Virus record (IMG/VR): IMGVR_UViG_3300039008_000120
Span: 1 to 64,000 of that record
Direction: 5' to 3' (one strand)
Origin: a virus
DNA: 64,000 bases
Shown: in pieces, positions 3,026 to 64,000 of the stretch
Layout: every line of letters starts with the position of its first letter
How positions within the stretch are numbered: position 1 is the first letter of the stretch
Position numbers and translations under genes: made by a program
Notes under the pieces: generated by a model
Databases searched by the model: none
What the model saw: the letters and a program-made list of their open reading frames with translations, nothing else
Told to the model about the DNA's origin: nothing

Positions 3026-4051
3026 TTATACTCCCCGGTGTTGTGCTACATGATAACAATTTTCCTTAAGCAAAATTCCATCCTAATTCTATTGAAATAT
3101 TATATTCCTATTTTCATATATACAATATGGTCTCTAATCTATATGTTCATAATCATCTATACCAACTAATGTTTTTTTATCAGTACTATTTGATTTTATA
3201 TATCTGTTAAATCCATTATACCATTGTGTATCAACAGATAATCTAGTGCGATAAAATATATACTGTAAACTGGGACTATTATACATATTACACATTAAAT
3301 GACTAAATCCACAGTCTCCACCAATATATACATTACATAATTGTGTTGCAATGTCAACTATATCACTCTATTTATAATTATCATCTAATATATTTATCTT
3401 TTTATCAGTCACGGTTTGTATATCTGTTAAATCTGATTGATAATTATCTTTTTTGATAATATAAAATTCCTTTACTGTGGCAGGGGAGCTATTAATAATA
3501 TTAATAATCATATCATTATCAAAATTACGTTCAATGTGATATAATTTACCGCTCACCGGCAAAATCATACAATTGGTCTTACTACCTTCATATATATTAT
3601 TATATTGGGGTAACAATGGAACACATGGAAACATATTTTCTTTTAATGTCTAATTATGTACCCGATAAAACATGTTCACTCTCTAATTATGAAATCTAGG
3701 CCATAGTTGACTAACATTATAATCATTATATAAATTATTTTTAATATCAATTTTATCAGGATTATAAACATGTGGTGCATATAACAATAAATCGTCAATA
3801 TCAACTAAATTATATCTTACATCATTTTGATATATAAAATATAAATTATTCCATTTAAATTTATCTGGATATAATTTAATTAACTTTCATTTAATATTAT
3901 ATAGTAGTGTTGTTAAAATGCACTAATCGCCTAGTCTCATATATGTAAAAAAATAAGTACTAGTTGCAATCAAATAGTACTTATCGTTTTGTTCTATGAA
4001 CCTACACTTTTCAACATCTGTTAAATTGATATTGTCAAGTAATTTATCCAT
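3026..4051 (-). pseudogene. paralogue of 4414..5496, with 7 in-frame TAG and one in-frame TGA (readthrough gene or decaying copy)
   Basis: One frame runs from the ATG at 4051 to TAA at 3026-3028 and includes track ORF 3368..3634. TAG at 3923, 3683, 3650, 3368, 3134, 3089 and 3083. TGA at 3887-3889. Aligns to 4414..5496 across KLYPDKF/CKYPDRF and GGDCGFSH/SGDCGLTH. Confidence 0.5.
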
Positions 4052-4395
4052 TATTTATTAGCTTTAAATAACATTTCGTCAATCTTCTTTAATTCTGCCT
4101 CGCAACTTTCTTTATCAGCGAAAAACCAGTATAATTTTAAATTATTATTAACTGACACAAACACAATGGCAGGGAACTTACCAAGTAATGGATGTATTGA
4201 ACTTGTATGATTACCTTGGTTAATTTGCTCATGCATAAAATGTGATGATGATGTATCGTTTTGATTATTATCAATCGGTACATCGTGAACAATATCATAT
4301 GTTAAAATATGATCAATGTTAATTGGTCTGTTTATAAACATTGTGTCTTCATTACAAATAATTAACTTACTAGGACATAACCACATTATTTTCAC
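4051..4395 (-). CDS. hypothetical protein
   Basis: 114-aa track ORF. Its TAA stop overlaps the next ATG by 1 nt. Confidence 0.55.
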   Translation of the reverse strand: MKIMWLCPSKLIICNEDTMFINRPINIDHILTYDIVHDVPIDNNQNDTSSSHFMHEQINQGNHTSSIHPLLGKFPAIVFVSVNNNLKLYWFFADKESCEAELKKIDEMLFKANK

Positions 4396-4413
4396 CTATA
4401 TATTTTTATTTAA

Positions 4414-5496
4414 TTAATTATTTTTTTGATATGGATTATATGGTTTAAAGTCTATTAATCCAAACTCGTTTTTATTATCAAATGCAAACCTATCAAAATG
4501 GTTTAATGTTTTTTTCATATCAAAATCTTTCGTGCGATAACGAATATCCATATCAGGTCTATAATCAGGATGAATCATTGATATAAAGTGAGTTAAACCA
4601 CAGTCTCCACTTATAAACTTACCACCTTTTGACATGATCTCTAAAAACAAGTGTGACCAATTATAATGCTGGCTAAGTATTTTAAATCTATACTTACATA
4701 TACGATTTAAATCCATAAGATCTATATCTGTTAAATCTTTTATTATTAATGTTACTGTATCATCTGGTTCATTATTAATAATATCTGCTATTTCGTTCAA
4801 TGTCATGTTGCGTTCACAATTATATTCTTTCTCCATAACTGGATAAAAGTATGTATTCTTTCTACCATTAGACGCTATCGCAAAGTGTCTTGGATCAACA
4901 ACGCCATAATCAAATCGATTATCAATATTAAGCTGTATACCATTTTTTTCTAAATAATACTTAAAACTCCAAATGTTACCACCACTTAATATTTGTTTAA
5001 CGTTATTTATATTAATATTATCAATATTGGCAGGATTATTATCATCTACAAATCTATTGATTGTGGTATTATAATAATCTTTCCATATATAAGGAAAAAA
5101 ACTTAAGAATACTGGCAGGGATCGAACAAGAACATCACCATGATTAGATCTATTTAAGATAAAGTATAAATTTTCACGATTAAATCTATCTGGATATTTA
5201 CATATCAATTCATTTTTTAAGAAATACAATAAACAACTTGTCATTGTTAAATCACCAACTCTCATCGGTGAACCCATCCAATCAGTATCTACAAATAGAT
5301 ATTCTATACCATCTTTCTTATATGTTGATATATTAAAATCAGGTGTTAATTTTTTAAACATATCTTTAGTTGAATTAAATGCATCTTGATTACCATGTAC
5401 ATACTCAATACCATCATTATTTATAACTAAATACCCATATTTACTTACTATATCTACCATTACTAAAGCTCCGTCAGTTATATTAGTTACACCCAA
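4414..5496 (-). CDS. hypothetical protein (GDCG-motif paralogue family)
   Basis: 360-aa track ORF with no TAG. Paralogous to 3026..4051. Confidence 0.65.
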   Translation of the reverse strand: MGVTNITDGALVMVDIVSKYGYLVINNDGIEYVHGNQDAFNSTKDMFKKLTPDFNISTYKKDGIEYLFVDTDWMGSPMRVGDLTMTSCLLYFLKNELICKYPDRFNRENLYFILNRSNHGDVLVRSLPVFLSFFPYIWKDYYNTTINRFVDDNNPANIDNININNVKQILSGGNIWSFKYYLEKNGIQLNIDNRFDYGVVDPRHFAIASNGRKNTYFYPVMEKEYNCERNMTLNEIADIINNEPDDTVTLIIKDLTDIDLMDLNRICKYRFKILSQHYNWSHLFLEIMSKGGKFISGDCGLTHFISMIHPDYRPDMDIRYRTKDFDMKKTLNHFDRFAFDNKNEFGLIDFKPYNPYQKNN

Positions 5497-8998: not shown

Positions 8999-9066
8999 AC
9001 CTTTTTAAAATATTATATTACACAATATTATACTATTTTTATGATGTCAAATGATAATTGTGTTTA

Positions 9067-9095
9067 TTGACAGTTTTTATATTATATACTATACT
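9067..9095 (+). promoter_or_regulatory. sigma70-like promoter (TTGACA-N17-TATACT)
   Basis: TTGACA at 9067-9072, 17-nt spacer, TATACT at 9090-9095, upstream of the 9144 ATG. Confidence 0.6.
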
Positions 9096-9106
9096 CTGAT
9101 TTTACA

Positions 9107-9117
9107 ATCTGTTAAAT
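9107..9117 (-). promoter_or_regulatory. ATTTAACAGAT motif followed by N3-TAAAAT
   Basis: Minus-strand TATTTAACAGATTGTAAAAT, about 110 nt upstream of the 8998 start in a divergent intergenic region. Confidence 0.35.
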
Positions 9118-9143
9118 ATAAATGGGAGTTATTGGGGGTTATA

Positions 9144-9551
9144 ATGTACACGGATAACATAATAAATGAGATAGTATTTAAAGGAATTAATAAATCTAAT
9201 AATGAATGGGTTTATGGATCATATTTTTACTCAAATAATACACATTATATAATAAACTCAGATACAGAAACTGTTAAAATTGCTGGATTGTGTAACATTG
9301 AACATAATAGTATTAATCAAATTGAAATTTGGGGTAATACTATATGTCAATTTATCGGGTATTATGATCAAAAAGATAAAAAAATATTTAATCGAGATAA
9401 GGTTCAATATCATTATAATGGTAATGACTATATCAGTGAAATAATTTATACACCAAATAGATTAATTATATGTGATAAACCATATCATGTATTAAATGAT
9501 GGGATATTATATAACTGTAATGTTGTTGGTAATATATTTGATCATCAATAA
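9144..9551 (+). CDS. YopX-like protein
   Basis: Track ORF 9051..9551 trimmed to the ATG at 9144 (RBS GGGGGT). EWVYGSYFY ... IEIWGNTICQFIGYYDQKDKKIF fits the YopX pattern. Confidence 0.55.
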   Translation: MYTDNIINEIVFKGINKSNNEWVYGSYFYSNNTHYIINSDTETVKIAGLCNIEHNSINQIEIWGNTICQFIGYYDQKDKKIFNRDKVQYHYNGNDYISEIIYTPNRLIICDKPYHVLNDGILYNCNVVGNIFDHQ

Positions 9552-9601
9552 TATATATTATTTAAATATTAAAACTATAGGATTTGGGTTAATATTTTTC
9601 A

Positions 9602-9630
9602 TTGACAACTACAATTAAAGATGATACTAT
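9602..9630 (+). promoter_or_regulatory. sigma70-like promoter (TTGACA-N17-TACTAT)
   Basis: TTGACA at 9602-9607, 17-nt spacer, TACTAT at 9625-9630, upstream of the 9665 ATG. Confidence 0.55.
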
Positions 9631-9664
9631 TTAATAAAAAATAATAAATAAGGATATATAAATA

Positions 9665-10285
9665 ATGGATTACCTTGAGGATTTTAGATATGGAGAAGAC
9701 ATATTGTTCAAAGCAATAAGTAAAGAAAAAAGGGAGTGGGTGGAAGGGTTATACATCAATATACAAGATAAAAATAAACTAACCCATTATATAACAAGAC
9801 CTTCAGGTGAAAAAATTGAAATTTGGCACAGTACGCTATCTATATTTACAAATATGATTGATGTTGACAATGTTAAAATATTCACAAACGATATAATTCA
9901 ATGTAATCCAGATATAATAGATCCAGTAAGAGATCATATTAAGTTTGAATCCGCAATTGATCAAATGAGTGGGGAATATATAGTATCTGATGATGTAAAC
10001 AGTTATGATCCTGATGTACGAGAAACCCCAATTTTTACATTATCTGAAGTTAATAATATTAAGGTTGTTGGAAATAGATATGATGATGCAAAAGAAATAA
10101 GCTTTAAAAAACTAAAAACTAAACGACAAAAACAAAAAGATAGAATTAACAATATTATTGCTGTTGTTAATGACAAAGACGATGCACTAAATGTTGATTA
10201 TATAAAAATGGAATATAACAATAATACTATACATGCAATTGTTTCAATTGTTCAAAAAATGTTATCAGATATTAAAAATATTTAA
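9665..10285 (+). CDS. YopX-like protein with a C-terminal extension
   Basis: 206-aa track ORF. REWVEGLY ... IEIWHSTLSIFT...VKIFTNDI is paralogous to 9144 and 10300. Confidence 0.5.
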   Translation: MDYLEDFRYGEDILFKAISKEKREWVEGLYINIQDKNKLTHYITRPSGEKIEIWHSTLSIFTNMIDVDNVKIFTNDIIQCNPDIIDPVRDHIKFESAIDQMSGEYIVSDDVNSYDPDVRETPIFTLSEVNNIKVVGNRYDDAKEISFKKLKTKRQKQKDRINNIIAVVNDKDDALNVDYIKMEYNNNTIHAIVSIVQKMLSDIKNI

Positions 10286-10299
10286 TGAAGGAATAATAT

Positions 10300-10692
10300 A
10301 TGTACGAAGACATTAGATATGGTGAAAAATTATTTAAAGCTATCTGTAAAAATAGCTTAAAATGGGTATATGGTTCGTATATATTCAAAAAATATTTGGA
10401 AAAAAATCAACATTATATATATAATAATGGTAATGAAATCTTAGTTTGGGGGAATACTGTATGTCAGTTTACTCACTGTTTTGATAAAAACCAAAATAAA
10501 ATATTTGAAAACGATTTATTAAAATTCCATGCTGTTAAATTAAATTCAACCAACCAAGAATTTTCTTTTATCTCAAGTATTGTTTTTGTTAATGGAAAAT
10601 ATATATTGGCTGATGAAATGAACCCAAAAAAATCTGGTAGTGAAATATCAGATGGAATAATAATAGGAAATAAATATGATCCAATACAGTGA
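10300..10692 (+). CDS. YopX-like protein
   Basis: 130-aa track ORF. KWVYGSYIF ... ILVWGNTVCQFTHCFDKNQNKIFENDL. Confidence 0.55.
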   Translation: MYEDIRYGEKLFKAICKNSLKWVYGSYIFKKYLEKNQHYIYNNGNEILVWGNTVCQFTHCFDKNQNKIFENDLLKFHAVKLNSTNQEFSFISSIVFVNGKYILADEMNPKKSGSEISDGIIIGNKYDPIQ

Positions 10693-12102: not shown

Positions 12103-13956
12103 TTAAATACCAAACATAGCACCCAAAGCACGAGACATTTTACTATCACCATTATTTTTCCCGGCACTTATTTGTTGTAATTGTCTCAATTGTAAATCTA
12201 AACCAGTATGATTAATATCGTTTGCAATTATATATTCTTTTACTACTCTATTTTTTAATGAATCTTCAACCTCTCTTTGAACATTGGTTGCAGTTTGATT
12301 ATGTTTATTTTTATTTTGTTTCTAATATGTTTTAAGAAACCTAAGTATTTTTCGTGAACTCTTATGTTTTGTTTGTGCTTGTGCTAAGATCTCAACAGTG
12401 AAAATACATATTGCAGTTGCCATTAATAGATCATCATGTTCTAAACCAACAGGTTTCCCCCTTCGTTTAATTACAAATTTCATTGCCTCATCAACTAAGT
12501 CTTCTGGTAATGTTTTATGTTTATATAATAAATTTGTTGATAATGTTATTAATGCTTTTTTACGTGTTGAATCAGTTGTTACAAAACCTAGCTTATTGGG
12601 TTTACCATCGTTATCAATGTCAAATTCATATGTATCTGTTTTCTTTACATACCGTATATTTGGTAATAATAAATGTGATAAATCAGATTCTTCAAATTTT
12701 TTAATTAAATAAAAACCCCTATTTCGTTCAATCATTATTTTTGCCCACTGATCAGTCTTAATATTTTTATAATATTTAGACAACTCAAGTAAATTATCAA
12801 AAATATTAAGTCTGGTTAAGCATGTGGCCTCTATACGAGATTGTGTTAAATTCTATACTGTTATTGCATTATAATGTGAACCCTCTTCCTGAACATCAGC
12901 AGATATTAAATAATCATCAGTTTTTGTTCGTTTATAATACACCTTAACGTGATCAAGCATTGTATCAATTTCTTTTTGTTGATCAATTAACATTAATTTT
13001 GTATCTTGAAAATATGTATCATACGGTAGAATCCACTGCATATCAAGCTCTGTTTTAATTGCTTTTTTATCATAATTAAGTAATTTACACTGCTCATCAT
13101 ACTAATCTTGATCACGATATGGTATTGTATCCCATGCTCCCTCAATTAGACGAAATCCAGACCCCTTAAATCCTTTTTTACGAACTGATTGGATTTGATT
13201 ATAAAACCATGAACCATATAAATTAGGTGTAGATAATACTATCATCTTACCATTTGTTGCAGATAGTGTGAATAATGAAGCCTTAAATATCTGTTCAACT
13301 CCATTTAGATAATCTGCTTCATCTAGTATAAGCCATGATGCTGACTGTGAACGACCAGATTGCTTTCCACTTGTCTGAGCAATAATTTTACTTGAATTTC
13401 TCTTATTACCTAAAACAAATTCTTTTTCATTTCTTTTAAGCTCTGATCTTCTTAAAAACCACGGAAGAGAATCATATTGAAACTTAAATTCACTAAGTGT
13501 CTCAATGGAATCTTTTTCGGTTTTAGAATATAATAATACTGTCTTGTTATTGTTAAATGTTAAAAACTATAATGCACACGCTAAGCTTGTCGTAGTGAAT
13601 CCAATTTGCCGTGATTTTGTACTGATAACTTTATCATCGTTAAATATGGCAGTTGCTAATTCAATCTGAATATCATACATTACAAATTTAACCATATCAC
13701 CCAGACATCTATTTTTTAATATTTCTGGCATAGTGTCTGGGTTATCAAACTTGTTCTTAACATATATATATTCATTTATAAAGTATAGCCAAGACTCTCT
13801 ACATTTTTTACGCTCTTCTTTAATTGTCTCTAATGTAGCATCACCTGTTATAAGTCTTCTTAACTATATTTTATCAACCTCATTAAGTTTACCTTGATCA
13901 TTTCTCACTTTTAATTTCTTTATTAAAGCTAATGTTTTTTTATCAAACTTTACCAT
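12103..13956 (-). CDS. terminase large subunit (617 aa, 5 in-frame TAG)
   Basis: One frame runs from the ATG at 13956 to TAA at 12103-05 and absorbs track ORFs 12853..13041 and 12322..12783. TAG at 13864, 13567, 13102, 12853 and 12322. Walker A-like KSRQIGFTTT, Walker B WLILDEADY, nuclease-half LEHDDLLMA. Confidence 0.8.
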
Positions 13957-18854: not shown

Positions 18855-20543
18855 TTAAAGAGACACCGCATATGCAACTGATAGCTTAACAACAGGCTCA
18901 CGAACTGTGCTACCAGATACATATACTTGGACAATATCACCTTCAGCTAAGGCAATATTTAAGTCATCTTTATGACCCCCATTTGTATTTGTTATTGTTA
19001 ATTTACCAAGTGAAATTCTCTCTCCATTTTTAAATATATGAATATCACTTGTACCTGTAACATTCGCACCTAAGTGAGCTGTGATGCCAGTTACACACAT
19101 ATCTTTAGATACTCGGATTGATGATGCGTTTGTTAATATATCACCACCAATTTTAAGGTATTTACTATTTACCATACCTTTCCTTGAATATATGTATGTT
19201 TCTCTGGATGACAACCATTTATTACGTGTGGTGTCTTTTCCATACACTGTACCATCAATCAATTTAATATCATTGACAGTCATCCCAAAATTTTCAATTG
19301 CAGTACTGTTTGCTGATATTTCATCCGCATTCTTTTTAACTTCAGCATCAAGTAACTCTCTTGCACTAAATGCTGTGGTTGCACTATCCATATAGTTAGT
19401 ACCGGAATGTGCCTTAAAAGTACCATCTGCATTTAAATTTAATGCAGATTCAATTGCATCAATTTCGGCTTGTGTATTCCCTGCACCAATCGCATTTGGT
19501 GTATAGCCAAATTCTATATCATCTACATCAACTTTTCGTGCAACATCATGTTTACCAAGTATATAAAACTGATATCCTGCCTATCTATCACCCTCATATA
19601 CTGGGATTGTTGTTCCCGGTAACAGTTCATTTTCAGGTTTACCATCAAGATCTGGGCGACGTGTTAAAACCTACGGCTTTGATGCATCACCAACTTCAGT
19701 TACATCATATACACCGTTTTGTTTTTTATCTGCCTGTCCAGCTAATAATATAGTTGATGTTGCTGTTATTGTATGTGAATCTATTGATACCAATTTTCCA
19801 TTTGCATTAGCTGTTAATTTTGATGCATTATCATCTGCAACTGGGGTATATGTACACGCAGGTAAAGGATCAGTTGTTGCACATGATACATGTGCCTTCG
19901 GGGATACACCTTGCATCATTGTTAAAATCTATGATTTTCGAGCAACGGAATTCATTGTTTTAGGATCAGTTGTAGTTGTGACTTCGTTGTCACCCATACT
20001 AAGATCACCGGTCATTGTGTCACCGGCTTTATTAACTTTTTTATTTAAATCATCAGCAACAGTTGTTTTTAAAGTTTCTAATTTGGTGTCAACCGCTTTC
20101 AATTCAGCATCTAATAATGTACTATCTTCTTTAAGTGAACCTGACGCATTAAGATAATTTGATGTTGTTCTTGCTTTATATGAACCATCATCTTCTAAAC
20201 CACTACCTGTTTCAATCGCATCAATCTCTGCCTGAAGTTCAGTATCTTTTTGTTCAAATGCAGTGCGTAACTCAGCATCCTTATCATCTATATACTTTTT
20301 GGATGCTCTCTTGATCTAATCAATACCATCTGAAGCACTAAGATCATCTGTTCCATCATTAACCACAATTGAACCAGCGGTAATTAATGTCTTAAGATCA
20401 CCTTGTAGTGCTGTGCTTAGTTCATCAGATGTAAATTCACCTGATAAAATATCACCACTAGCACCATCGGGCATATCCTACCCTAAACTCTCAACAAATA
20501 ACACGTCTCCCGTCTTATTTATTAAATTAATAATCTATTCCAT
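18855..20543 (-). CDS. tail fibre protein A (562 aa, 6 in-frame TAG)
   Basis: One frame from the ATG at 20543 to TAA at 18855-57 joins track ORFs 19671..19919 and 18855..19391. TAG at 20535, 20478, 20316, 19929, 19671 and 19581. Contains NGVYDVTEVGDASKP*VLTRRPD, a common tail-fibre motif. Confidence 0.75.
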
Positions 20544-31459: not shown

Positions 31460-33418
31460 TTAAACTTTAAATTTTGATATAATGTTTTTAAAATTGGAAA
31501 TACAATTAACATCAAGTTTTTCTATAATTTGAACCAACTTGCTAAAATCATCAGATATAGATTTATTAACCTCATCGATCGTGGTTATATTATTTGACAT
31601 ATTATTTATATCTACCATCATTTTTTTAAGATTTGAAAAAATTAACTCAATTCCACCCGAAACATCTGTCACATTTTTAGACATTTCATCACTTGAAATT
31701 GATTGTTCTTCGGTTGATGAGGCAACTGTGTTCATAACATCATTTACTTTATTCATATCAGTATTCACAGATGAAAGACCAGATTTTGATATTGATGTTT
31801 GTTCTTGAACATGTGATATTTTCTGTTTAATATCAACAGTTGCATTCGCTGTTTGTTTGGATAGTTCCTTTATTTCATTTGCAACAACAGCAAAACCCTT
31901 TCCAGCTTCACCTGCTCTTGCTGATTCTATCTGTGCATTTAATGATAATAAATTGGTTTGATCTGCTATATCAGAAATTAGCTCTATTATAGTATTTATA
32001 TCTAATGCTGACTGGTCTAAGCTATCAACAACTGTAAAGTTATCATTTAACTTTTTAATAGTTTCATCTATCATACCTTTGACACAATCCGCATTTTCAG
32101 CAATTTCATTTACTGTATATGACATCTCTTCTATACCAGACACTATAGTAGAAATGTTCCCAGATGATTCATCCGCTGATTGTAATATCTGTTTACAATT
32201 ATTATCAACAGAGTTACTAGTTGTATCAATATTTTGGATATTCTCAGTATTTTTATTTAATTCTAACTGTGATTCATTTGATAAATGAATAATTTCATTA
32301 AAATTATTAGATAAGTCATCATTTGCAATTTTTATATCAGTAATAATTGTATGAAGCGACTCGAAAAAAATATTAAACCAATGAATCAAATTATCCAATT
32401 CATCACCTGAGTTATTTTGTGGTAACCTAACTCTCAAATCACCATCACCTGTAGCAATATCTTTAATATTACTTTTAAGGTTTAAAATTGGTTTTAGTAT
32501 TTTATGATCAAAAATAAAAGTTACAATTACCAATAAAATAACTAATCCAATAAAACTAATTATACATCCAGCAATATTTAAATGTTTAATTTCACTAAAA
32601 AAAACATTTTCATCAACCACGACACCAAGTGACCATGATTTGATACCATAATTAAATAATATTGGTGTGAATGTATAAAACGAGTTTATTTTGCTTTGAC
32701 TTGATGTCATTTGCCAATTAAACGAGTTTTCACGTTGAATATTTTCTGTTATGTTAATAACATCATAGAACTCATTTACATTTCGATTTACTATATGCTT
32801 TTGTGGATGCCCAACAATATATCCATTATTATTTGATATAATAATATAACCACTATTAAATGGTTTAATGGTTTTTGCTATATTAACAAACTCTTGTGTT
32901 AAAATATCAATTTCAATATAACCAATATGTTTTTTATTTTTTTTAATTGAATATGTAATTGTAAATATTAATTCATCTGCATATGTTTTATATGGATCAG
33001 AAATTGCAAATCCTTCTATATTATATTTGATTTTATTTATATGCTTATTTTCTTTACTGAAAATAATTTTATTGTTAATCTCATATGCGTTTATATTATA
33101 ATTATTTGTTTTTATTCGAATACCAATAATATCAGTATTAACTAATTGATATTTTAACTCCTTCTTAATATTTGATACACCAACTATTTGTGATATCTTT
33201 ATACTTGTATTGGTGATCTGATTAATATATAATGACATTTTTCTATAGATTGATTTAGAATATGCTTCTGAACTTTTTTGTAACGCATACATACTTTTAT
33301 CATATATTATGTCTGATGCAATATGATTTGCAACTGATATTATTGCCACACATACCAATGTTATAACTATACTTATTGGTATAAGTAATTTTAATTTTAA
33401 ACTTTCAGAATATTTCAT
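31460..33418 (-). CDS. methyl-accepting chemotaxis protein (two TM segments, Cache-like sensor, HAMP, MA domain)
   Basis: 652-aa track ORF. TM segments at about aa 10-35 and 285-310. HAMP-like segment. Signalling hairpin [40 protein letters not shown]. Confidence 0.85.
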
Positions 33419-35169: not shown

Positions 35170-36453
35170 TCAATCTAAATCTCCACCATCTTCAGCGAAG
35201 AATAGTATAATTTTACCGTCTCGTGCATTACTATCTGTTGTACATTTTACTAGAACTGTATCGTTCTCCTTAAAATCAACATTCAAATCATTAACCACAA
35301 CACCTGTTGCAGATGAAATTGTTATTATACTCAAATCATTTGGTTCGTTGTTTTTTCTTACATGAAACTTTAAATTAGATGTAGATCTAATTGTTGCACT
35401 AGCACCAACTAAAACTGAATTTTTGGGTATTTTCAACCCCCCAAGATTTGACGGAATATTCCCTATTGTACGTAAATACATATTTCTACATATACCAGTT
35501 TTACCAAGCTCAAATTGAAAGCGATTTCCTAGCTATTTCTCACGTTCACTGTCTTTTATATAGTATGTATTATTAATAATTTTGAAATTATTTAAAACAT
35601 TATCACATGATTTTAATTTTTTATCAATCAGTTCGAGTACTTTGGATAAAGATTCTCCGACCTTTGAACCAATTGTACTAAGGTCTGCAATTGTTGAAAT
35701 TTCGGTGGTTTTGTGTTTTCCGGGTTTACCATTTAAATGTGATCCAAAATCAATATCACCGATTTTCCCCCATGATGTAGTTGTGGTGGTACCATCACTA
35801 TCAATGCCATGCACATACTGAGCTTGTTTACCGTCACCATCGTCATCAATTACAACACCATAGTTATCTTTAACTGGGTTATCTGCTGACAATACAAAGT
35901 CAGTGCCATCATATTCATAAACTTTATTATCGGTTATATTAATAATTCTATCAGCAATTTTAACATCACCAATTGATACCCACTTACCATCAATTACTTT
36001 GAAATATGATTTTGATGTAGAATTGTAATATATACTACCTTCTTTACCAACATCCGGTTCAGTTGCAGATATATTTAAAAAATATTTAATTGGTGTTAAC
36101 TAAACACTAGGTGAACCAAAACTTGGGGCACCGAATATATTGTCCCAGTGAACCTTTGATTCACCTGCTTTCCCCAGTTGTTTTTTGCTATAATAATGTC
36201 GCTCAAGATCTAAGACATTTTGTCGCCTTAAATACTTCAGTGCATCTTCAATAGATAGGTCATCATCACCATCATTTACAATAATTGAACCGGCAGTAAT
36301 TAATGTCTTAAGATCTTCTGATGAACATAGCTCACCATAGTCAAATTGATCACTGGTTAGTATATTCTCTGATCCCTCCAATACCAAACCAATATCTGGT
36401 ATTTCCAAATCACCCGGATTTTGATTTTTTAAATATATAGTCTAATCTGCCAT
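35170..36453 (-). CDS. tail fibre protein B (427 aa, 3 in-frame TAG)
   Basis: One frame from the ATG at 36453 to TGA at 35170-72 joins track ORFs 36100..36408, 35533..35892 and 35170..35481. TAG at 36442, 36100 and 35533. Shares the N-terminal DLKTLITAGSI(I/V)VNDG module with fibre A. Confidence 0.7.
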
Positions 36454-42765: not shown

Positions 42766-44058
42766 TTAAATATAATCTGTCAATGAAATTCTTTTATTAA
42801 ATTCTTCAACTCTCCAATTCAACACTCTATTTGAGATTTCAATACCATTTTTACCATTAAATAAATCAGATATATGATTTGGTACATTAAGCATATTTAC
42901 AATCTCAGCGTTTTTAATATGCTTTATTATTATACCATCAATACCACTTAAACCTTTACTAACTTTAATACTATTTACAACACTCAATACATCACTTAAC
43001 GTTTTTCTTTTTTGTAAGTGATGTATAATTTTTAAAATCTGCACTGGTTTCATTTTATAAATTTCATTGATAGTTAAATGAAATTTAATAGTATCTTCTA
43101 TAGTTTTCTTAATATTGTTGGGTAATTTTAGGCGTTTACTTATATATGGCACTAGAAATAGCCCTGTTCTATCATGATCACAATGATATGGTAGCTGTGA
43201 ATCATTAGTAAAAATTTTACCGATATCATGATATAATGCACCCCATAGTGCAGGAATTGAATCAGTTGACATTTTAGTTATATCAACTACATTCATCACA
43301 TGATCATATACATCAAGGTAATGAATGTGTGTCAACCCAACTAAGTGTGAAATAACAGGAAACCATATATCTAAATTTTCTGTTTCTTTTAAAACATTAA
43401 AAAATATACTAGGTGAATTAGACGATTTAAATGTTTTATCAACTTCAATATATATTCGTTCACCTGAAAGCCCCTCGGTTTGTACCGACAAGTCTTTCAT
43501 TAAATTTAATGTTTTTTTATCAACATCAAAATTAAAACGGGAAGCTAACCGTCCTGTTCGAAATATCCGTAATGGATCATCTGCATATGCATCACTAGTA
43601 TGACACAAAACTTTAGAACGAATAGACTCCATGCCTTTATATGGATCAATTATATTATTTAAATCACTAATTGGTATTGCCATAGAGTTAATTGTCAAAT
43701 CTCGACGCTTTAGATCGTCTTCAATTGTGATGTTTTTTCCATATACAACATCAAAATCAGTATGACCATTACCAGTTGACCGCTCTTGACGTGCAACTGC
43801 TAATTCTATTTTTTCAATACCACTTGATGATTCTATTTCTAATAAAAATACTGGAAATGATGACCCAATTAGTTTAAATCTTTCATTTAGTTTATGTAGT
43901 TGTGGTTCTGTTATTTTTTCAATACACAAATCAATATCATTTGATTTGATATTTAATAAATGATCTCTACATATCCCACCAACGAGATAAACTTGTGATA
44001 GCATATCTAAATCACTGAACAATGCAATAAGATTATCATATAAAATTTTATCTATCAT
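42766..44058 (-). CDS. cca: CCA-adding enzyme / poly(A) polymerase-family tRNA nucleotidyltransferase with an HD domain
   Basis: 430-aa track ORF. GGICRDHLL, DIDL, RRDLTINSMA and a C-terminal YHDIGK. Confidence 0.8.
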   Translation of the reverse strand: MIDKILYDNLIALFSDLDMLSQVYLVGGICRDHLLNIKSNDIDLCIEKITEPQLHKLNERFKLIGSSFPVFLLEIESSSGIEKIELAVARQERSTGNGHTDFDVVYGKNITIEDDLKRRDLTINSMAIPISDLNNIIDPYKGMESIRSKVLCHTSDAYADDPLRIFRTGRLASRFNFDVDKKTLNLMKDLSVQTEGLSGERIYIEVDKTFKSSNSPSIFFNVLKETENLDIWFPVISHLVGLTHIHYLDVYDHVMNVVDITKMSTDSIPALWGALYHDIGKIFTNDSQLPYHCDHDRTGLFLVPYISKRLKLPNNIKKTIEDTIKFHLTINEIYKMKPVQILKIIHHLQKRKTLSDVLSVVNSIKVSKGLSGIDGIIIKHIKNAEIVNMLNVPNHISDLFNGKNGIEISNRVLNWRVEEFNKRISLTDYI

Positions 44059-50778: not shown

Positions 50779-52659
50779 TTACCATATTACATTTAACTTA
50801 AAATCATAAGAATATATACTATAATTATGACTTTTAGATACAAGATTAATTTTCCTCGATGAACGTTTACGTTTAAATTTATTTGAATCATGATTTTTAT
50901 TAGTTATATTTGTTAATACATTATTTCCTGATTCAAATAGAGATAGAATATCTTCATCTTCAACCGGTTCAATATTATTTTCTAAGTCTTCGTCGGTGAT
51001 ATCCTCTAATATATCAGACATTACATCATTCGGAAATAGTTTATTAAGAATAAATTCATCTTTAATGTTCATTCCCAACATTTGTTCTAACTGGGTAAAC
51101 ATTGTAACAAATTTTGACGACTTATCTAAATCTGTTTCTTTTCGTTCACTCATTGGAACAAATTCAGGTATATTAACATTTAAATATTTAATGTCTAAAT
51201 CTTTATAATTAACACCTAACTACTTTTCCATCTAAAACGTTAATATATTATTTAACATTACTTGATAATGGCGAATTTTCATTGAATAAACATTATCATG
51301 TAGTGCCAACATGCTATTATTCTGATATGTTTTGGCATTACTTGATTTTCTATAATGTAAAGGAATACCCATAGTATGATATACCTTATCCTACCAGTAA
51401 TCAATGTCATCCAGTAGTGGCTTGTATTCAGATTTTAATGTGTCTATTTTTAAATTTTCACCCTCAGTTGGAACAATCAAATTTGAATCTATGAGATTTT
51501 TTACAATATCAAAACTCATTTGATCTGTTGTTTCATCAAAATTCATTGCTGATTTCGATTTTACTAAATTTCGATATAACATAAGTGTGTTTGCAATGTC
51601 TTCATCTTCAATTTTTTCTAAATCCAATTTCCAAATGTGAGTTGTTTTAGATTTCGATAATCTCTCTATTAATAATGACAACTCTAACAGCTCGATAACT
51701 TTTAAATAATTTATAACTTTGTCAACTTGAGATTTTCCAATTACACCTTTTTCAGCAATGAAAAACATGTTCTCGGATTTTAATTCTGTACCATCTTCGA
51801 TTTTAAATATACTAATATTCTTATTGGTTATTTTTTTTAAATGATCATCTTCATCTATTGTTTTAAACATAGTGGTTGATGAATTACCTGATGATTCAAG
51901 TAAATCATTACTAATTTTTGTTGAATTTATTGTAGTGTTACCATTTGAAGTTTCCTTAAACACTACCTCATCAAGGCTATAAAAACTAACATCTGAATAT
52001 GTCTTAACGTCATCAAAATAAAAAATTCCACACCCATACCGCAAAATACTGTTTACTAAATTATACAATGAAAGTTTAATATTATTTCTCTTTAATAAAT
52101 TTCCAATCGCTAGTGATATTTCTTTGTGATGTGAATCAACTTTTTCAACGTTGTTGTTATAAATAAGCTGATCAACCTCTATATTTGGAACATTGATATC
52201 ATCGATAATATCAGTAGAATCGGATGTAGTACTATCGTTTATATATCTAGTATCTATTTTTTTCTCCAAAACTTTATACTCACCGAATAAATTAACCTCA
52301 ATCTTTCTTTTATTTGATGATGATGTATATATAATAGATGATGCTAACATATCTATTAAATATTCAATTTCTGGAAAACGATCTAAATATAAATTAACTC
52401 TATTAATTAATGATAATTTAGAATCAAAGCCACCATTAACTGTAACAATACCTAACCTATTAAATAAATCAGTGCTAACATTATTAATAAATTCATTCGA
52501 TTCATTTAACACATTATATGCACTACTTCGTGCAGTTGGTAACGACTTTGATATTAAATTATCAAGCTCCCCAGTTTTAACTAATTCTTTACCCTAAGAC
52601 ACCCCATTACTTTTTTTCTCAAAGTTAAGTGAATGTCGTTTTTTTGTAAAATTTATCAT
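50779..52659 (-). CDS. portal protein (626 aa, 4 in-frame TAG)
   Basis: One frame from the ATG at 52659 to the stop at 50779 joins track ORFs 51391..52512 and 50779..51153. TAG at 52594, 51391, 51232 and 51220. DMLASSIIYTS and DDIDYW*DKVYHTMGIPLHYR resemble T4 gp20 segments as I recall them. Acidic C-terminal tail. Confidence 0.7.
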
Positions 52660-63486: not shown

Positions 63487-64000
63487 ATGAGTTCACAAAT
63501 TGATTGTTACTTTGGAATTAGACCAACTGGTAATAAGCTTCACTTAGGTCACTTAATGACACTTTTTGATATGTTTGATTTTATAGTAACAAACATAAAT
63601 CACGTTAATAATATATATATTCTTTTAGCTGAAATCCATGCTCAAATATCAAAAATTTCAATAGAAAAAATTAAGTTAAATTCTAAAGATTTACATATTC
63701 AAATTTTAGAAGTATTTAATATATTTTTGAGAATGAGAAATATATCTCCTGAAAAAATTAAATATTTAAATAATAAAATTAAATTTATATATCAGTCTGA
63801 TTTTGAAACTCATGTTAATATCACATATACATATTTACCACTTGTAAACACAAATAAAGTATTAAAAAATCCAATTTTCAAAAACAATAATAACAACAGT
63901 GTCGGCTTTTTAATTTATCCAATTTTACAAACGTTTGATATTATATTATACTCACCAAACAGCAAAGATACTGATCTTTATGTTTTTGTGGGTGGTGATC
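63487..64000 (+). CDS. trpS: tryptophanyl-tRNA synthetase-like class Ic aaRS, 3' end outside the window
   Basis: ATG at 63487 with a GGAG RBS, open to the window end. GIRPTGNKLHLGH (HIGH), ILLAEIHA, ISPEK, FIYQSDFETH, IFK, SVGFLIYPILQTFDIILY and VFVGGD align in order and spacing with bacterial TrpRS: G.QPSG..TIGN, CIVDQHA, IDPEK, F.QS.VPEH, QFK, AGL..YP.LMAADILLY and VPVGEDQ. Confidence 0.7.
   Translation, partial: MSSQIDCYFGIRPTGNKLHLGHLMTLFDMFDFIVTNINHVNNIYILLAEIHAQISKISIEKIKLNSKDLHIQILEVFNIFLRMRNISPEKIKYLNNKIKFIYQSDFETHVNITYTYLPLVNTNKVLKNPIFKNNNNNSVGFLIYPILQTFDIILYSPNSKDTDLYVFVGGD

Follow-up and report, generated by a model that had tools for sequence, protein, structure and literature searches.

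TAG as a probable second tryptophan codon in a clade of AT-rich jumbo phages

Introduction

A number of phages read one of the three stop codons as sense, amongst them the Lak, crAss-like, Agate and Jade phages, and the assignments described for them are TAG-to-Gln and TGA-to-Trp (Borges et al., bioRxiv 10.1101/2021.08.26.457843; Peters et al., PMC9523058); code 25 has also been reported for phages. Surveys ascribe the restriction to these two assignments to natural mischarging by the glutaminyl- and tryptophanyl-tRNA synthetases (GlnRS and TrpRS) of the host, and when 29 phage tRNA(CUA) were tested in E. coli extract, 28 inserted Gln and one Ala. A computational isotype call of Trp has been made for 19% of a phage tRNA-Sup(CUA) set, there related to the ‘rarely reported code 32’ (PMC10879173). 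Here, we consider a stretch of viral DNA of 64,000 nucleotides (positions 1 to 64,000 of IMG/VR record IMGVR_UViG_3300039008_000120; the whole of this stretch is referred to as the window), which contains a pair of paralogous genes, one rich in in-frame TAG codons (gene A) and one free of them (gene B), and in which TAG very probably serves as a second codon for tryptophan.

The strategy suggested by this locus has clear counterparts. As in other stop-recoded phages, the stop codon is used as sense mainly in structural and late genes, with the genes of the code change itself compatible with the standard code; and as in the TAG-recoded phages, a suppressor tRNA is found together with release factor 2 (RF2), which serves the remaining two stops, although here the pair has been located in a relative of the phage. 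In the Jade phages, a module for the code change, made up of a TrpRS, a tRNA-Trp(UCA) and release factor 1 (RF1) brings about TGA-to-Trp recoding (Borges et al.; for the AP1 and HF2 TrpRS:tRNA pairs, PMC12636597). Our system is alike in bringing together a TrpRS and a suppressor tRNA, both phage-encoded, with the matching release factor, and in having Trp as the presumed inserted residue; as the codon is TAG and not TGA, the release factor is RF2 in place of RF1 and the anticodon CUA in place of UCA. It differs in that the TrpRS gene of the relative lies some 38 kb from the adjacent tRNA and RF2 genes, rather than in one operon with them, and in that the tRNA is of class II with U73, whereas that of AP1 is described with G73 (PMC12636597; our comparison with AP1 and HF2 being by description only). 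It also stands apart from the recoded phages of Borges et al. and Peters et al. as a whole, in that TAG behaves as Trp, a TrpRS being found in those phages only alongside the TGA-to-Trp recoding of the Jade group. What would be new is thus the assignment, TAG-to-Trp, and the enzyme that enables it, rather than the strategy.

Outside the phages, the same assignment has a precedent. NCBI genetic code 32, that of the Balanophoraceae plastid, reads TAG as Trp and still stops at TAA and TGA; the genome is an extremely AT-rich one, in which the change from TGG to TAG removes a G. To our knowledge, TAG-to-Trp is otherwise confined to this plastid code, and our search of open-access papers and bioRxiv returned no report of it in a phage, but a plastid paper only. 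The phage shares with code 32 both the assignment and an AT-rich genome; unlike the plastid, it must impose its code on a host that uses the standard one, and the machinery is phage-encoded (the TrpRS in the window, the tRNA(CUA) and RF2 in a relative).

Results

Use of TAG as a sense codon

The phage has a G+C content of 26% and is a jumbo phage, the longest contig with its proteins measuring 232,818 bp. Coding density, computed by non-overlapping open reading frames (ORFs), is 72.5% under code 11 and 88.0% when TAG is read through, as against 74.8% when it is TGA that is read through. About 71 TAG codons are spread over 30 of the window's genes, with a further 51 genes having none, and a series of genes attains full length only if TAG is read through: the large terminase, two fibre-like genes, genes of 485 and 583 amino acids ahead of the capsid gene, the capsid gene itself, a portal-like gene (50779..52659) and a ClpP-type protease. 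All of the chosen genes end in TAA or TGA, ATGA overlaps included, the sole exception to this pattern being an in-frame TGA within gene A. Judged from the reading frames, TAG is a sense codon across the window, and TAA and TGA still terminate.

The distribution of TAG amongst the genes is uneven. It is concentrated in virion and presumably late genes (terminase, capsid, portal-like gene, tail fibres, prohead protease and gene A), whilst the replication and nucleotide-metabolism genes in the window contain no TAG at all, and the translation-related genes are likewise free of it. The TAG-free set in the window includes the YopX genes, an exonuclease, a CCA-adding enzyme, an SMC/Rad50-like ATPase, a PD-(D/E)XK nuclease and a 5'-3' exonuclease, and is extended just past the window end by dUTPase, dNMP kinase and rIIB genes; the replication, nucleotide-metabolism and translation-related genes can therefore be legible with the standard code of the host. 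The frequency of TGG is 0.54% in TAG-bearing genes and 0.63% in TAG-free genes, a composition test that is not decisive.

Genes A and B

Gene A (3026..4051, minus strand) has 341 codons, with seven in-frame TAG codons, one in-frame TGA (3887-3889) and a terminal TAA. That terminal codon is the only TAA in its frame, as compared with 11 and 36 in the remaining two frames, and the frame is therefore open under a code in which TAG is sense. Its paralogue, gene B (4414..5460, or to 5496 from a TTG start; minus strand), is TAG-free, encodes 348 residues and has no internal stops. Counting back from a GDCG motif shared by the two, the first-pass annotation of this DNA had set the TAG at 3368-3370 (codon 228 of gene A, in the context DDNYK[TAG]SDIV) against the TGG at 4657-4659 (Trp 268 of gene B, in the context QHYN-W-SHL); both do lie exactly 17 residues ahead of GDCG, and a BLASTP alignment of the two proteins (E=7e-18, 26% identity) places this TAG opposite Trp 268. 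Elsewhere in that alignment, TAGs of gene A fall opposite L, I and F of gene B, and the TGA opposite N. Gene B has only four Trp amongst its 348 residues, such that the chance of at least two of five aligned TAGs falling on W is small (P=1.3e-3).

An exhaustive profile search for the gene A/B family yielded 11 additional members, and in the resulting alignment, where 10 sequences are informative, the register holds: all 10 informative homologues have W where gene A has the TAG at 3368-3370. The same is true of a second site, the TAG at 3683-3685 (codon 123; minus strand, as are all the sites in these genes), which faces the TGG at 4969-4971 of gene B in a column that is Trp throughout. Other sites are occupied by different hydrophobic residues; that of the TAG at 3134-3136 (codon 306) is Phe in every TAG-free homologue, that at 3923-3925 is a Leu/Phe column and that at 3650-3652 an Ile/Leu column. 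The in-frame TGA (codon 55) sits in a variable column.

The annotation had also supposed that a homologue with Q in the column of codon 228 would speak against Trp. One such homologue exists on paper, P0062, but its DNA (L015) has TAG at this position, and the Q arises from translation of TAG by code 15; it is therefore not evidence for Gln. With an identity of 44%, P0062 is orthologous to gene A, and its gene carries TAG at five of the same codons, codon 228 included. Two extra TAGs in the L015 gene lie exactly opposite TGG codons of gene A, and an AGA (Arg) lies opposite the gene A TGA. The sequence of gene A, TGA included, is the same in two further assemblies (L003 and L005). The TAG of one paralogue and the TGG of the other are a synonymous difference, the two codons being one transition apart. 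As for the TGA, it marks either a site of read-through or a nonsense allele in a paralogue that is dispensable, and in both cases falls outside the TAG recoding; that it represents a recent inactivating mutation, which would leave the reading of TAG unaffected, we consider possible but rather doubtful.

Neither gene A nor gene B gave a match in Pfam. The family has a motif, I(S/G)GDCG(L/F)(T/S)H (window 3026-5460), which we take to resemble the nucleotide-sugar-binding motif of GT9 heptosyltransferases, and offer as a lead only. Separately, a GT9-like gene adjoins the phage TrpRS gene described below.

The large terminase and ‘Q’ residues in databases

The large terminase (TerL, of the T4 type; 12103..13956, minus strand) has five in-frame TAGs. 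Three TAG columns of the TerL alignment are invariant W in 10 distant, standard-code, T4-type outgroups, and two of these correspond to the window TAGs at 13567-13569 and 13102-13104. In a pair of these columns, TGG and TAG are the only codons amongst the 15 ingroup sequences, which never have TAT or TAC there.

Close database homologues of TerL alternate between W and ‘Q’ at otherwise conserved Trp positions. For P0003 and P0011, where the DNA was checked against the protein, each such ‘Q’ proved to be a TAG translated by code 15 gene calling; members of the clade translated in this way in public collections comprise P0003, P0004, P0010, P0011 and P0062 (loci L002, L011, L008, L001 and L015, respectively). 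With the terminase as sole query, a search of IMG/VR for close relatives found none, and INPHARED had no close relative of either the terminase or the TrpRS.

The tail-fibre pair

Two tail-fibre-like genes, both on the minus strand, form a second pair of paralogues, one with six TAGs (18855..20543) and the other with three (35170..36453). For these, the annotation had paired one TAG with Tyr and another with Leu. The former pairing stands, the TAG at 20316-20318 being opposite a TAT (Tyr, 36232-36234) within a BLASTP high-scoring segment pair (HSP; E=7e-10); the latter, of the TAG at 20478-20480 with a TTG (Leu), lies outside the HSP, and is only weakly confirmed, by ungapped extension and by eye. 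The C-terminal HSP of the two fibres (E=2e-13) adds a pairing that had been missed, in which the TGG at 19215-19217 of the first gene is opposite the TAG at 35533-35535 of the second. A ‘PWxLTR’ motif, considered as support for W at ‘KPXVLTRR’, was dropped, the only solved homologue (9efk) having Ala.

Residues opposite TAG across the clade

To move beyond single sites, the codon facing each TAG was tabulated over 39 ORF families common to the window, its flanks and related phage contigs, amounting to 133 sequence pairs. Amongst the 198 aligned cases, TAG is partnered by TGG in 79, by a Tyr codon (TAT/TAC) in 36, and by codons for Phe in 15, Asp in 14, Leu in 12 and Gln in a single one. This is the same profile as that of real TGG codons in the same alignments, whose partners are W (168), Y (68) and F (32). 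The preference is not one of abundance, with Trp making up ~0.6% of codons here and Tyr codons being about nine times commoner than TGG.

When the counts were scored against the partners that each amino acid has empirically in the same alignments, the log-likelihood was best for Trp, with Tyr next at -193, Phe and Leu more than 300 units worse and Gln 490 below Trp. Counting by alignment column, which reduces non-independence, gives W as the majority residue in 24 of the 77 informative TAG columns, Y in 14, L in seven, F in six and Q in none. When each genome is considered by itself, Trp outnumbers or equals every other non-TAG partner in 10 of 12, with a tie in two of the 10; the exceptions are L009, which has very few informative sites, and C1, which still shares TAG/W columns with the others.

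It had been proposed from the paralogue pairs that TAG occupies aromatic or hydrophobic positions and not polar ones. The wider comparison bears this out and sharpens it to Trp, given the uniform W of the gene A column, the near absence of Gln opposite TAG and the invariant W of the TerL outgroups. The Tyr, Leu, Ile and Phe found opposite TAG in the paralogue pairs fit with Trp, as these are its usual substitution partners and TGG itself has the same profile. We conclude that TAG is, with high probability, a second Trp codon in this phage and its clade.

A phage tryptophanyl-tRNA synthetase

At its very end, the window contains the first 171 codons of a TAG-free, TrpRS-like gene (63487..64000, plus strand), cut by the window end; the full gene, of 338 amino acids, is available from another assembly (L006:8273-9289). 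The best NCBIfam model for the protein is trpS (TIGR00233; E=2.5e-22), and amongst solved structures it comes closest to the [4Fe-4S] TrpRS of Thermotoga maritima (PDB 2g36). Seven homologues, 41-48% identical, are all on large phage-like contigs. A profile built from the eight phage sequences matched 16 TrpRS structures before the first tyrosyl-tRNA synthetase (TyrRS), at 1.7e-23 for 2g36 as against 1.6e-6 for the TyrRS, and the top 50 Foldseek matches of an AF2 (AlphaFold 2) model (pLDDT 80) are all bacterial TrpRS; the synthetase also matches archaeal TyrRS weakly. Invariant throughout the phage family are a HIGH-type motif (HLGH), KMSKS, the Asp of the substrate pocket and the four Fe-S cluster Cys. 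The likeness to the Thermotoga enzyme, in sequence, fold and these retained motifs, goes only so far, however: identity is ~20-25%, the pocket motif is Q-x-F-D and not M/Q-A-A-D, the C-terminal end is shorter and diverged, and the presumed tRNA has the anticodon CUA and not CCA.

In the relatives L012, L013, L014, L096, L097 and L136, which also use TAG as sense, the gene keeps its genomic setting and is again free of TAG. In the window and in L012, L013, L096 and L097, it has a block of 5'-3' exonuclease and ClpP genes on one side and a glycosyltransferase gene on the other, with rII-like or nucleotide-metabolism genes beyond the glycosyltransferase; L014 and L136 could be read on the downstream side only. 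A scan of GTDB genomes with the family gave only cellular TrpRS, at no more than 32% identity, and no clue to the host. We regard the ORF at 63487..64000 as the N-terminus of a divergent phage TrpRS, and as a candidate for the enzyme that charges an amber-reading tRNA with Trp.

The suppressor tRNA and RF2 of a relative

In one relative, IMGVR_UViG_3300021166_000052, we were able to walk along 51 kb of a contig of 276 kb. This holds a TAG-free RF2 gene (L107:15709-16821; prfB, E=7e-107, with SPF and GGQ motifs) and, ~410 nt downstream of it, a gene for a tRNA(CUA) (L107:17231-17321), found by ARAGORN and matched by the Rfam tRNA model with 41 bits (E=5.5e-8, relaxed filters). The two are at about 111.4-113.0 kb of the contig, and the tRNA, which is the only one in the 51 kb, is ~38 kb downstream of the relative's TrpRS gene. 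It is 91 nt in length, has a G+C content of 48% within DNA of 27% G+C, an encoded CCA and no GG in the D-loop. ARAGORN gives it the label ‘tRNA-Pyl’ that goes with a CUA anticodon; pyrrolysine was rejected, given Trp in the aligned columns and no sign of genes for Pyl.

Efforts to find further examples of these two genes gave the following. A pattern drawn from the tRNA, GACTCTAAATC-N22-GTTTGAATC, had chance matches only in IMG/VR, and its matches in JGI metagenomes (L113-L134) are mostly a conserved coding stretch, presumably an FtsH motif, which overlaps the tRNA pattern by chance. Searches of IMG/VR for a second RF2, both by protein and by a DNA pattern for the SPF motif, gave the same contig only. 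Aimed instead at sequence of the phage past the window, a scan of JGI metagenomes with a PfkB-like neighbour gave no match. Comparison of the tRNA(CUA) with 43 bacterial tRNAs was uninformative as to isotype.

Other genes of the window and its relatives

The TAG-free genes include some unusual cargo for a phage, in the form of a gene of 652 amino acids (31460-33418, minus strand) whose domains (dCache, HAMP and MCP signalling) are those of a bacterial methyl-accepting chemotaxis protein. A CCA-adding enzyme, with PolyA_pol head, RNA-binding and HD domains, is encoded at 42766-44058 (minus strand) and has a homologue in the relative L008; such an enzyme fits with a phage that keeps one or more tRNAs of its own, yet the tRNA of the relative walked above already encodes its CCA. 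Three tandem genes with Pfam YopX domains are found at 9051-10692 (plus strand), and are likewise TAG-free.

Amongst the relatives, a TnpB/Cas12f-like ORF with an in-frame TAG is present at L006:3-1019, some 8-9 kb past the window end, and at L014:10468-11790; the latter is a weak match to PF07282, and the ORF looks like a mobile-element nuclease adapted to the phage code. The large subunit of ribonucleotide reductase (RNR) in relatives (L013:19039-21023 and L136:3572-7117) carries an intein with a LAGLIDADG endonuclease. In L012 and L136, the RNR gene is followed by a small gene of the Hc1 (chlamydial histone-like) kind, which in L014 comes after the dNMP kinase gene.

Discussion

Taking these findings together, the whole is best explained, and with good probability, by TAG acting as a second Trp codon, with TAA and TGA as stops, decoded by machinery that the phage brings with it. 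As to what that machinery is, we lean towards a phage-encoded set of TrpRS, tRNA(CUA) and RF2 in the window's phage too, but hold this less firmly, because its tRNA and RF2 were not found in ~82 kb and the identity of the relative's tRNA is not legible from its sequence. We suggest that, early in infection, the phage would make its own divergent TrpRS (from the gene that starts at 63487), together with an amber-reading tRNA(CUA) that host synthetases charge poorly or wrongly. RF2 would probably be made as well and, by covering UAA and UGA only, keep termination at these two codons efficient. The phage TrpRS would then load Trp onto the tRNA(CUA), such that the TAG-bearing late genes become translatable, and are translated only once the set has been expressed, in keeping with the regulatory model of Borges et al. 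Within this scheme, we infer the charging of tRNA(CUA) by the TrpRS, the presence of the same tRNA and RF2 in the window's phage, and the early/late timing.

The design of such a set may have its reason in how host enzymes treat amber-reading tRNAs. Bacterial TrpRS recognises the CCA anticodon and G73 of its tRNA. A one-base change in the anticodon is enough to let a Trp-type tRNA read UAG, as in su7 of E. coli, a tRNA-Trp with a CUA anticodon that acts as an amber suppressor but is charged mostly with Gln by GlnRS. This is likely why the phage would need both a synthetase of its own and a tRNA body foreign to the host. We are inclined, by a slight balance of probability, to see here a clade of very AT-rich jumbo phages with a self-contained and naturally orthogonal amber system, composed of a divergent Fe-S-type TrpRS, a class II tRNA(CUA) with U73 that should escape the synthetases of the host, and RF2, and representing the first viral case of TAG-to-Trp, an assignment supposed to be absent from phages.

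A number of observations weigh against the reading of TAG as Trp by phage-encoded machinery. ARAGORN, with standard or relaxed settings, and Rfam, at gathering or E-value thresholds, revealed not a single tRNA in the window and its 18 kb of flanks (~82 kb of phage); the matches that appear at relaxed thresholds are inside genes, and are noise. The Rfam negatives on long AT-rich stretches are weak evidence of absence, since the model missed the relative's tRNA(CUA) in a 1-kb slice (L107:16800-17800), although it scored 41 bits in a slice of 121 nt (L107:17215-17335). The suppressor tRNA and RF2 have been seen in one relative only, whose TrpRS is 45% identical to that of the window's phage. This tRNA is unlike tRNA-Trp in its 19-nt long variable arm (which places it in class II), U73, C1-G72 pair and T-loop UUUGAAU, with the anticodon loop, CUCUAAA, the only part that fits a canonical bacterial tRNA-Trp (class I, with G73, and CCA or a one-step derivative of it), and its anticodon arm is as close to that of bacterial tRNA-Tyr as to that of tRNA-Trp. 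These non-canonical features would lower the probability that it ‘is a tRNA-Trp’, rather than that it is ‘charged with Trp by the phage enzyme’. The synthetase scores 79.6 bits with trpS, where the curated NCBIfam cut-off is 176.75, and is therefore called TrpRS-like, a divergent member and not an equivalog. Finally, the residue opposite TAG is in many columns Tyr, Phe or Leu, and even Asp, so that single sites are weak and the case rests on the aggregate, and the sequence pairs in the tabulation are not independent of each other.

Amongst the rival readings, that of TAG as Gln (code 15), known from the crAss-like and Lak phages and assumed by gene callers, has precedent on its side, in that Borges et al. 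found phages with TAG-to-Gln and TGA-to-Trp only, and 28 of 29 phage tRNA(CUA) inserted Gln in E. coli extract; it also appears to have database support, from the Q at TAG columns in P0003, P0004, P0011, P0062 and others. But at the level of the DNA those database Q residues are TAG, a genuine Gln codon stands opposite TAG just once in 198 cases, Gln is the majority in none of 77 columns, the likelihood is 490 units under that of Trp, and outgroup terminases have an invariant W at three TAG columns, all of which leaves Gln as the least probable of the readings that we considered. An ambiguous decoding, or one as Leu or Phe, might be expected if a class II tRNA(CUA), such as the one found, were charged by a host leucyl- or seryl-tRNA synthetase that ignores the anticodon, and several TAG columns do face Leu, Ile or Phe; yet Leu and Phe codons, far commoner than TGG, face TAG much less often, their likelihoods are more than 300 units worse, and the conserved phage TrpRS would lack an explanation. 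The discriminator base expected for Leu is A73 and for Ser G73, and U73 matches neither, which counts against charging by either enzyme. This reading, too, we judge to be very improbable, though less firmly so for ambiguous decoding. Tyr deserves more serious consideration given the shape of the tRNA, as a class II suppressor could arise through a G34-to-C change of the supF type: the long variable arm and the CUCUAAA loop would suit it, the synthetase belongs to the class Ic family of Trp and Tyr enzymes and has weak matches to archaeal TyrRS, and only Trp is found opposite TAG more often than Tyr, which accounts for 36 of 198 pairs and is the majority residue of 14 out of 77 columns, with W and Y not being separated by pair counts alone in the tRNA-carrying relative. 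Several lines of evidence nevertheless make it very improbable. TAG faces TGG twice as often as Tyr in spite of the ninefold excess of Tyr codons, whereas real Tyr codons are opposite W in only ~2% of cases; the W:Y:F ratio of TGG is the same as that of TAG; the invariant-W columns of TerL hold TGG or TAG, but never TAT or TAC; the synthetase family is that of TrpRS by both sequence profile and fold; and the tRNA-carrying relative shares the TAG/W columns.

A different kind of objection concerns the paralogue pair, namely that gene A is a decaying pseudogene whose TAGs are nonsense mutations, in which case the pairing of TAG with TGG, one step apart, would be uninformative on the code. Gene A does have the highest stop density in the window (seven TAGs and a TGA in 341 codons), the TGA is not explained by TAG recoding and lies opposite AGA in the orthologue, and public gene callers fragment the region. 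Decay sits poorly, however, with a frame that lacks any internal TAA at 26% G+C, where the other two frames have 11 and 36, and with the retention of five TAGs in an orthologue of 44% identity that adds TAGs of its own opposite gene A TGG codons; moreover, the TAG/W pattern recurs in the terminase, the capsid region and the fibres. We consider decay to be very improbable, if the least so of these alternatives, and retain the reading of TAG as Trp.

One practical consequence would be for sequence databases, where proteins of this clade (P0003, P0011 and P0062) are held with Gln in place of conserved Trp, to the detriment of homology search, structure prediction and annotation; gene callers limited to codes 4, 11 and 15 would repeat the error of TAG as Gln. 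Another would be for code expansion with tryptophan analogues, since the TrpRS and tRNA(CUA), if they are a natural orthogonal amber pair, are the part that is sought for this purpose. For the biology of recoded phages, a TAG-to-Trp clade would, if true, break the rule of TAG-to-Gln and TGA-to-Trp, and suggests how this might be done, through a synthetase of the phage's own and an unusual tRNA; and the plastid of Balanophora and the phage, both of them AT-rich, would have converged on one reassignment under the pressure of AT mutation.

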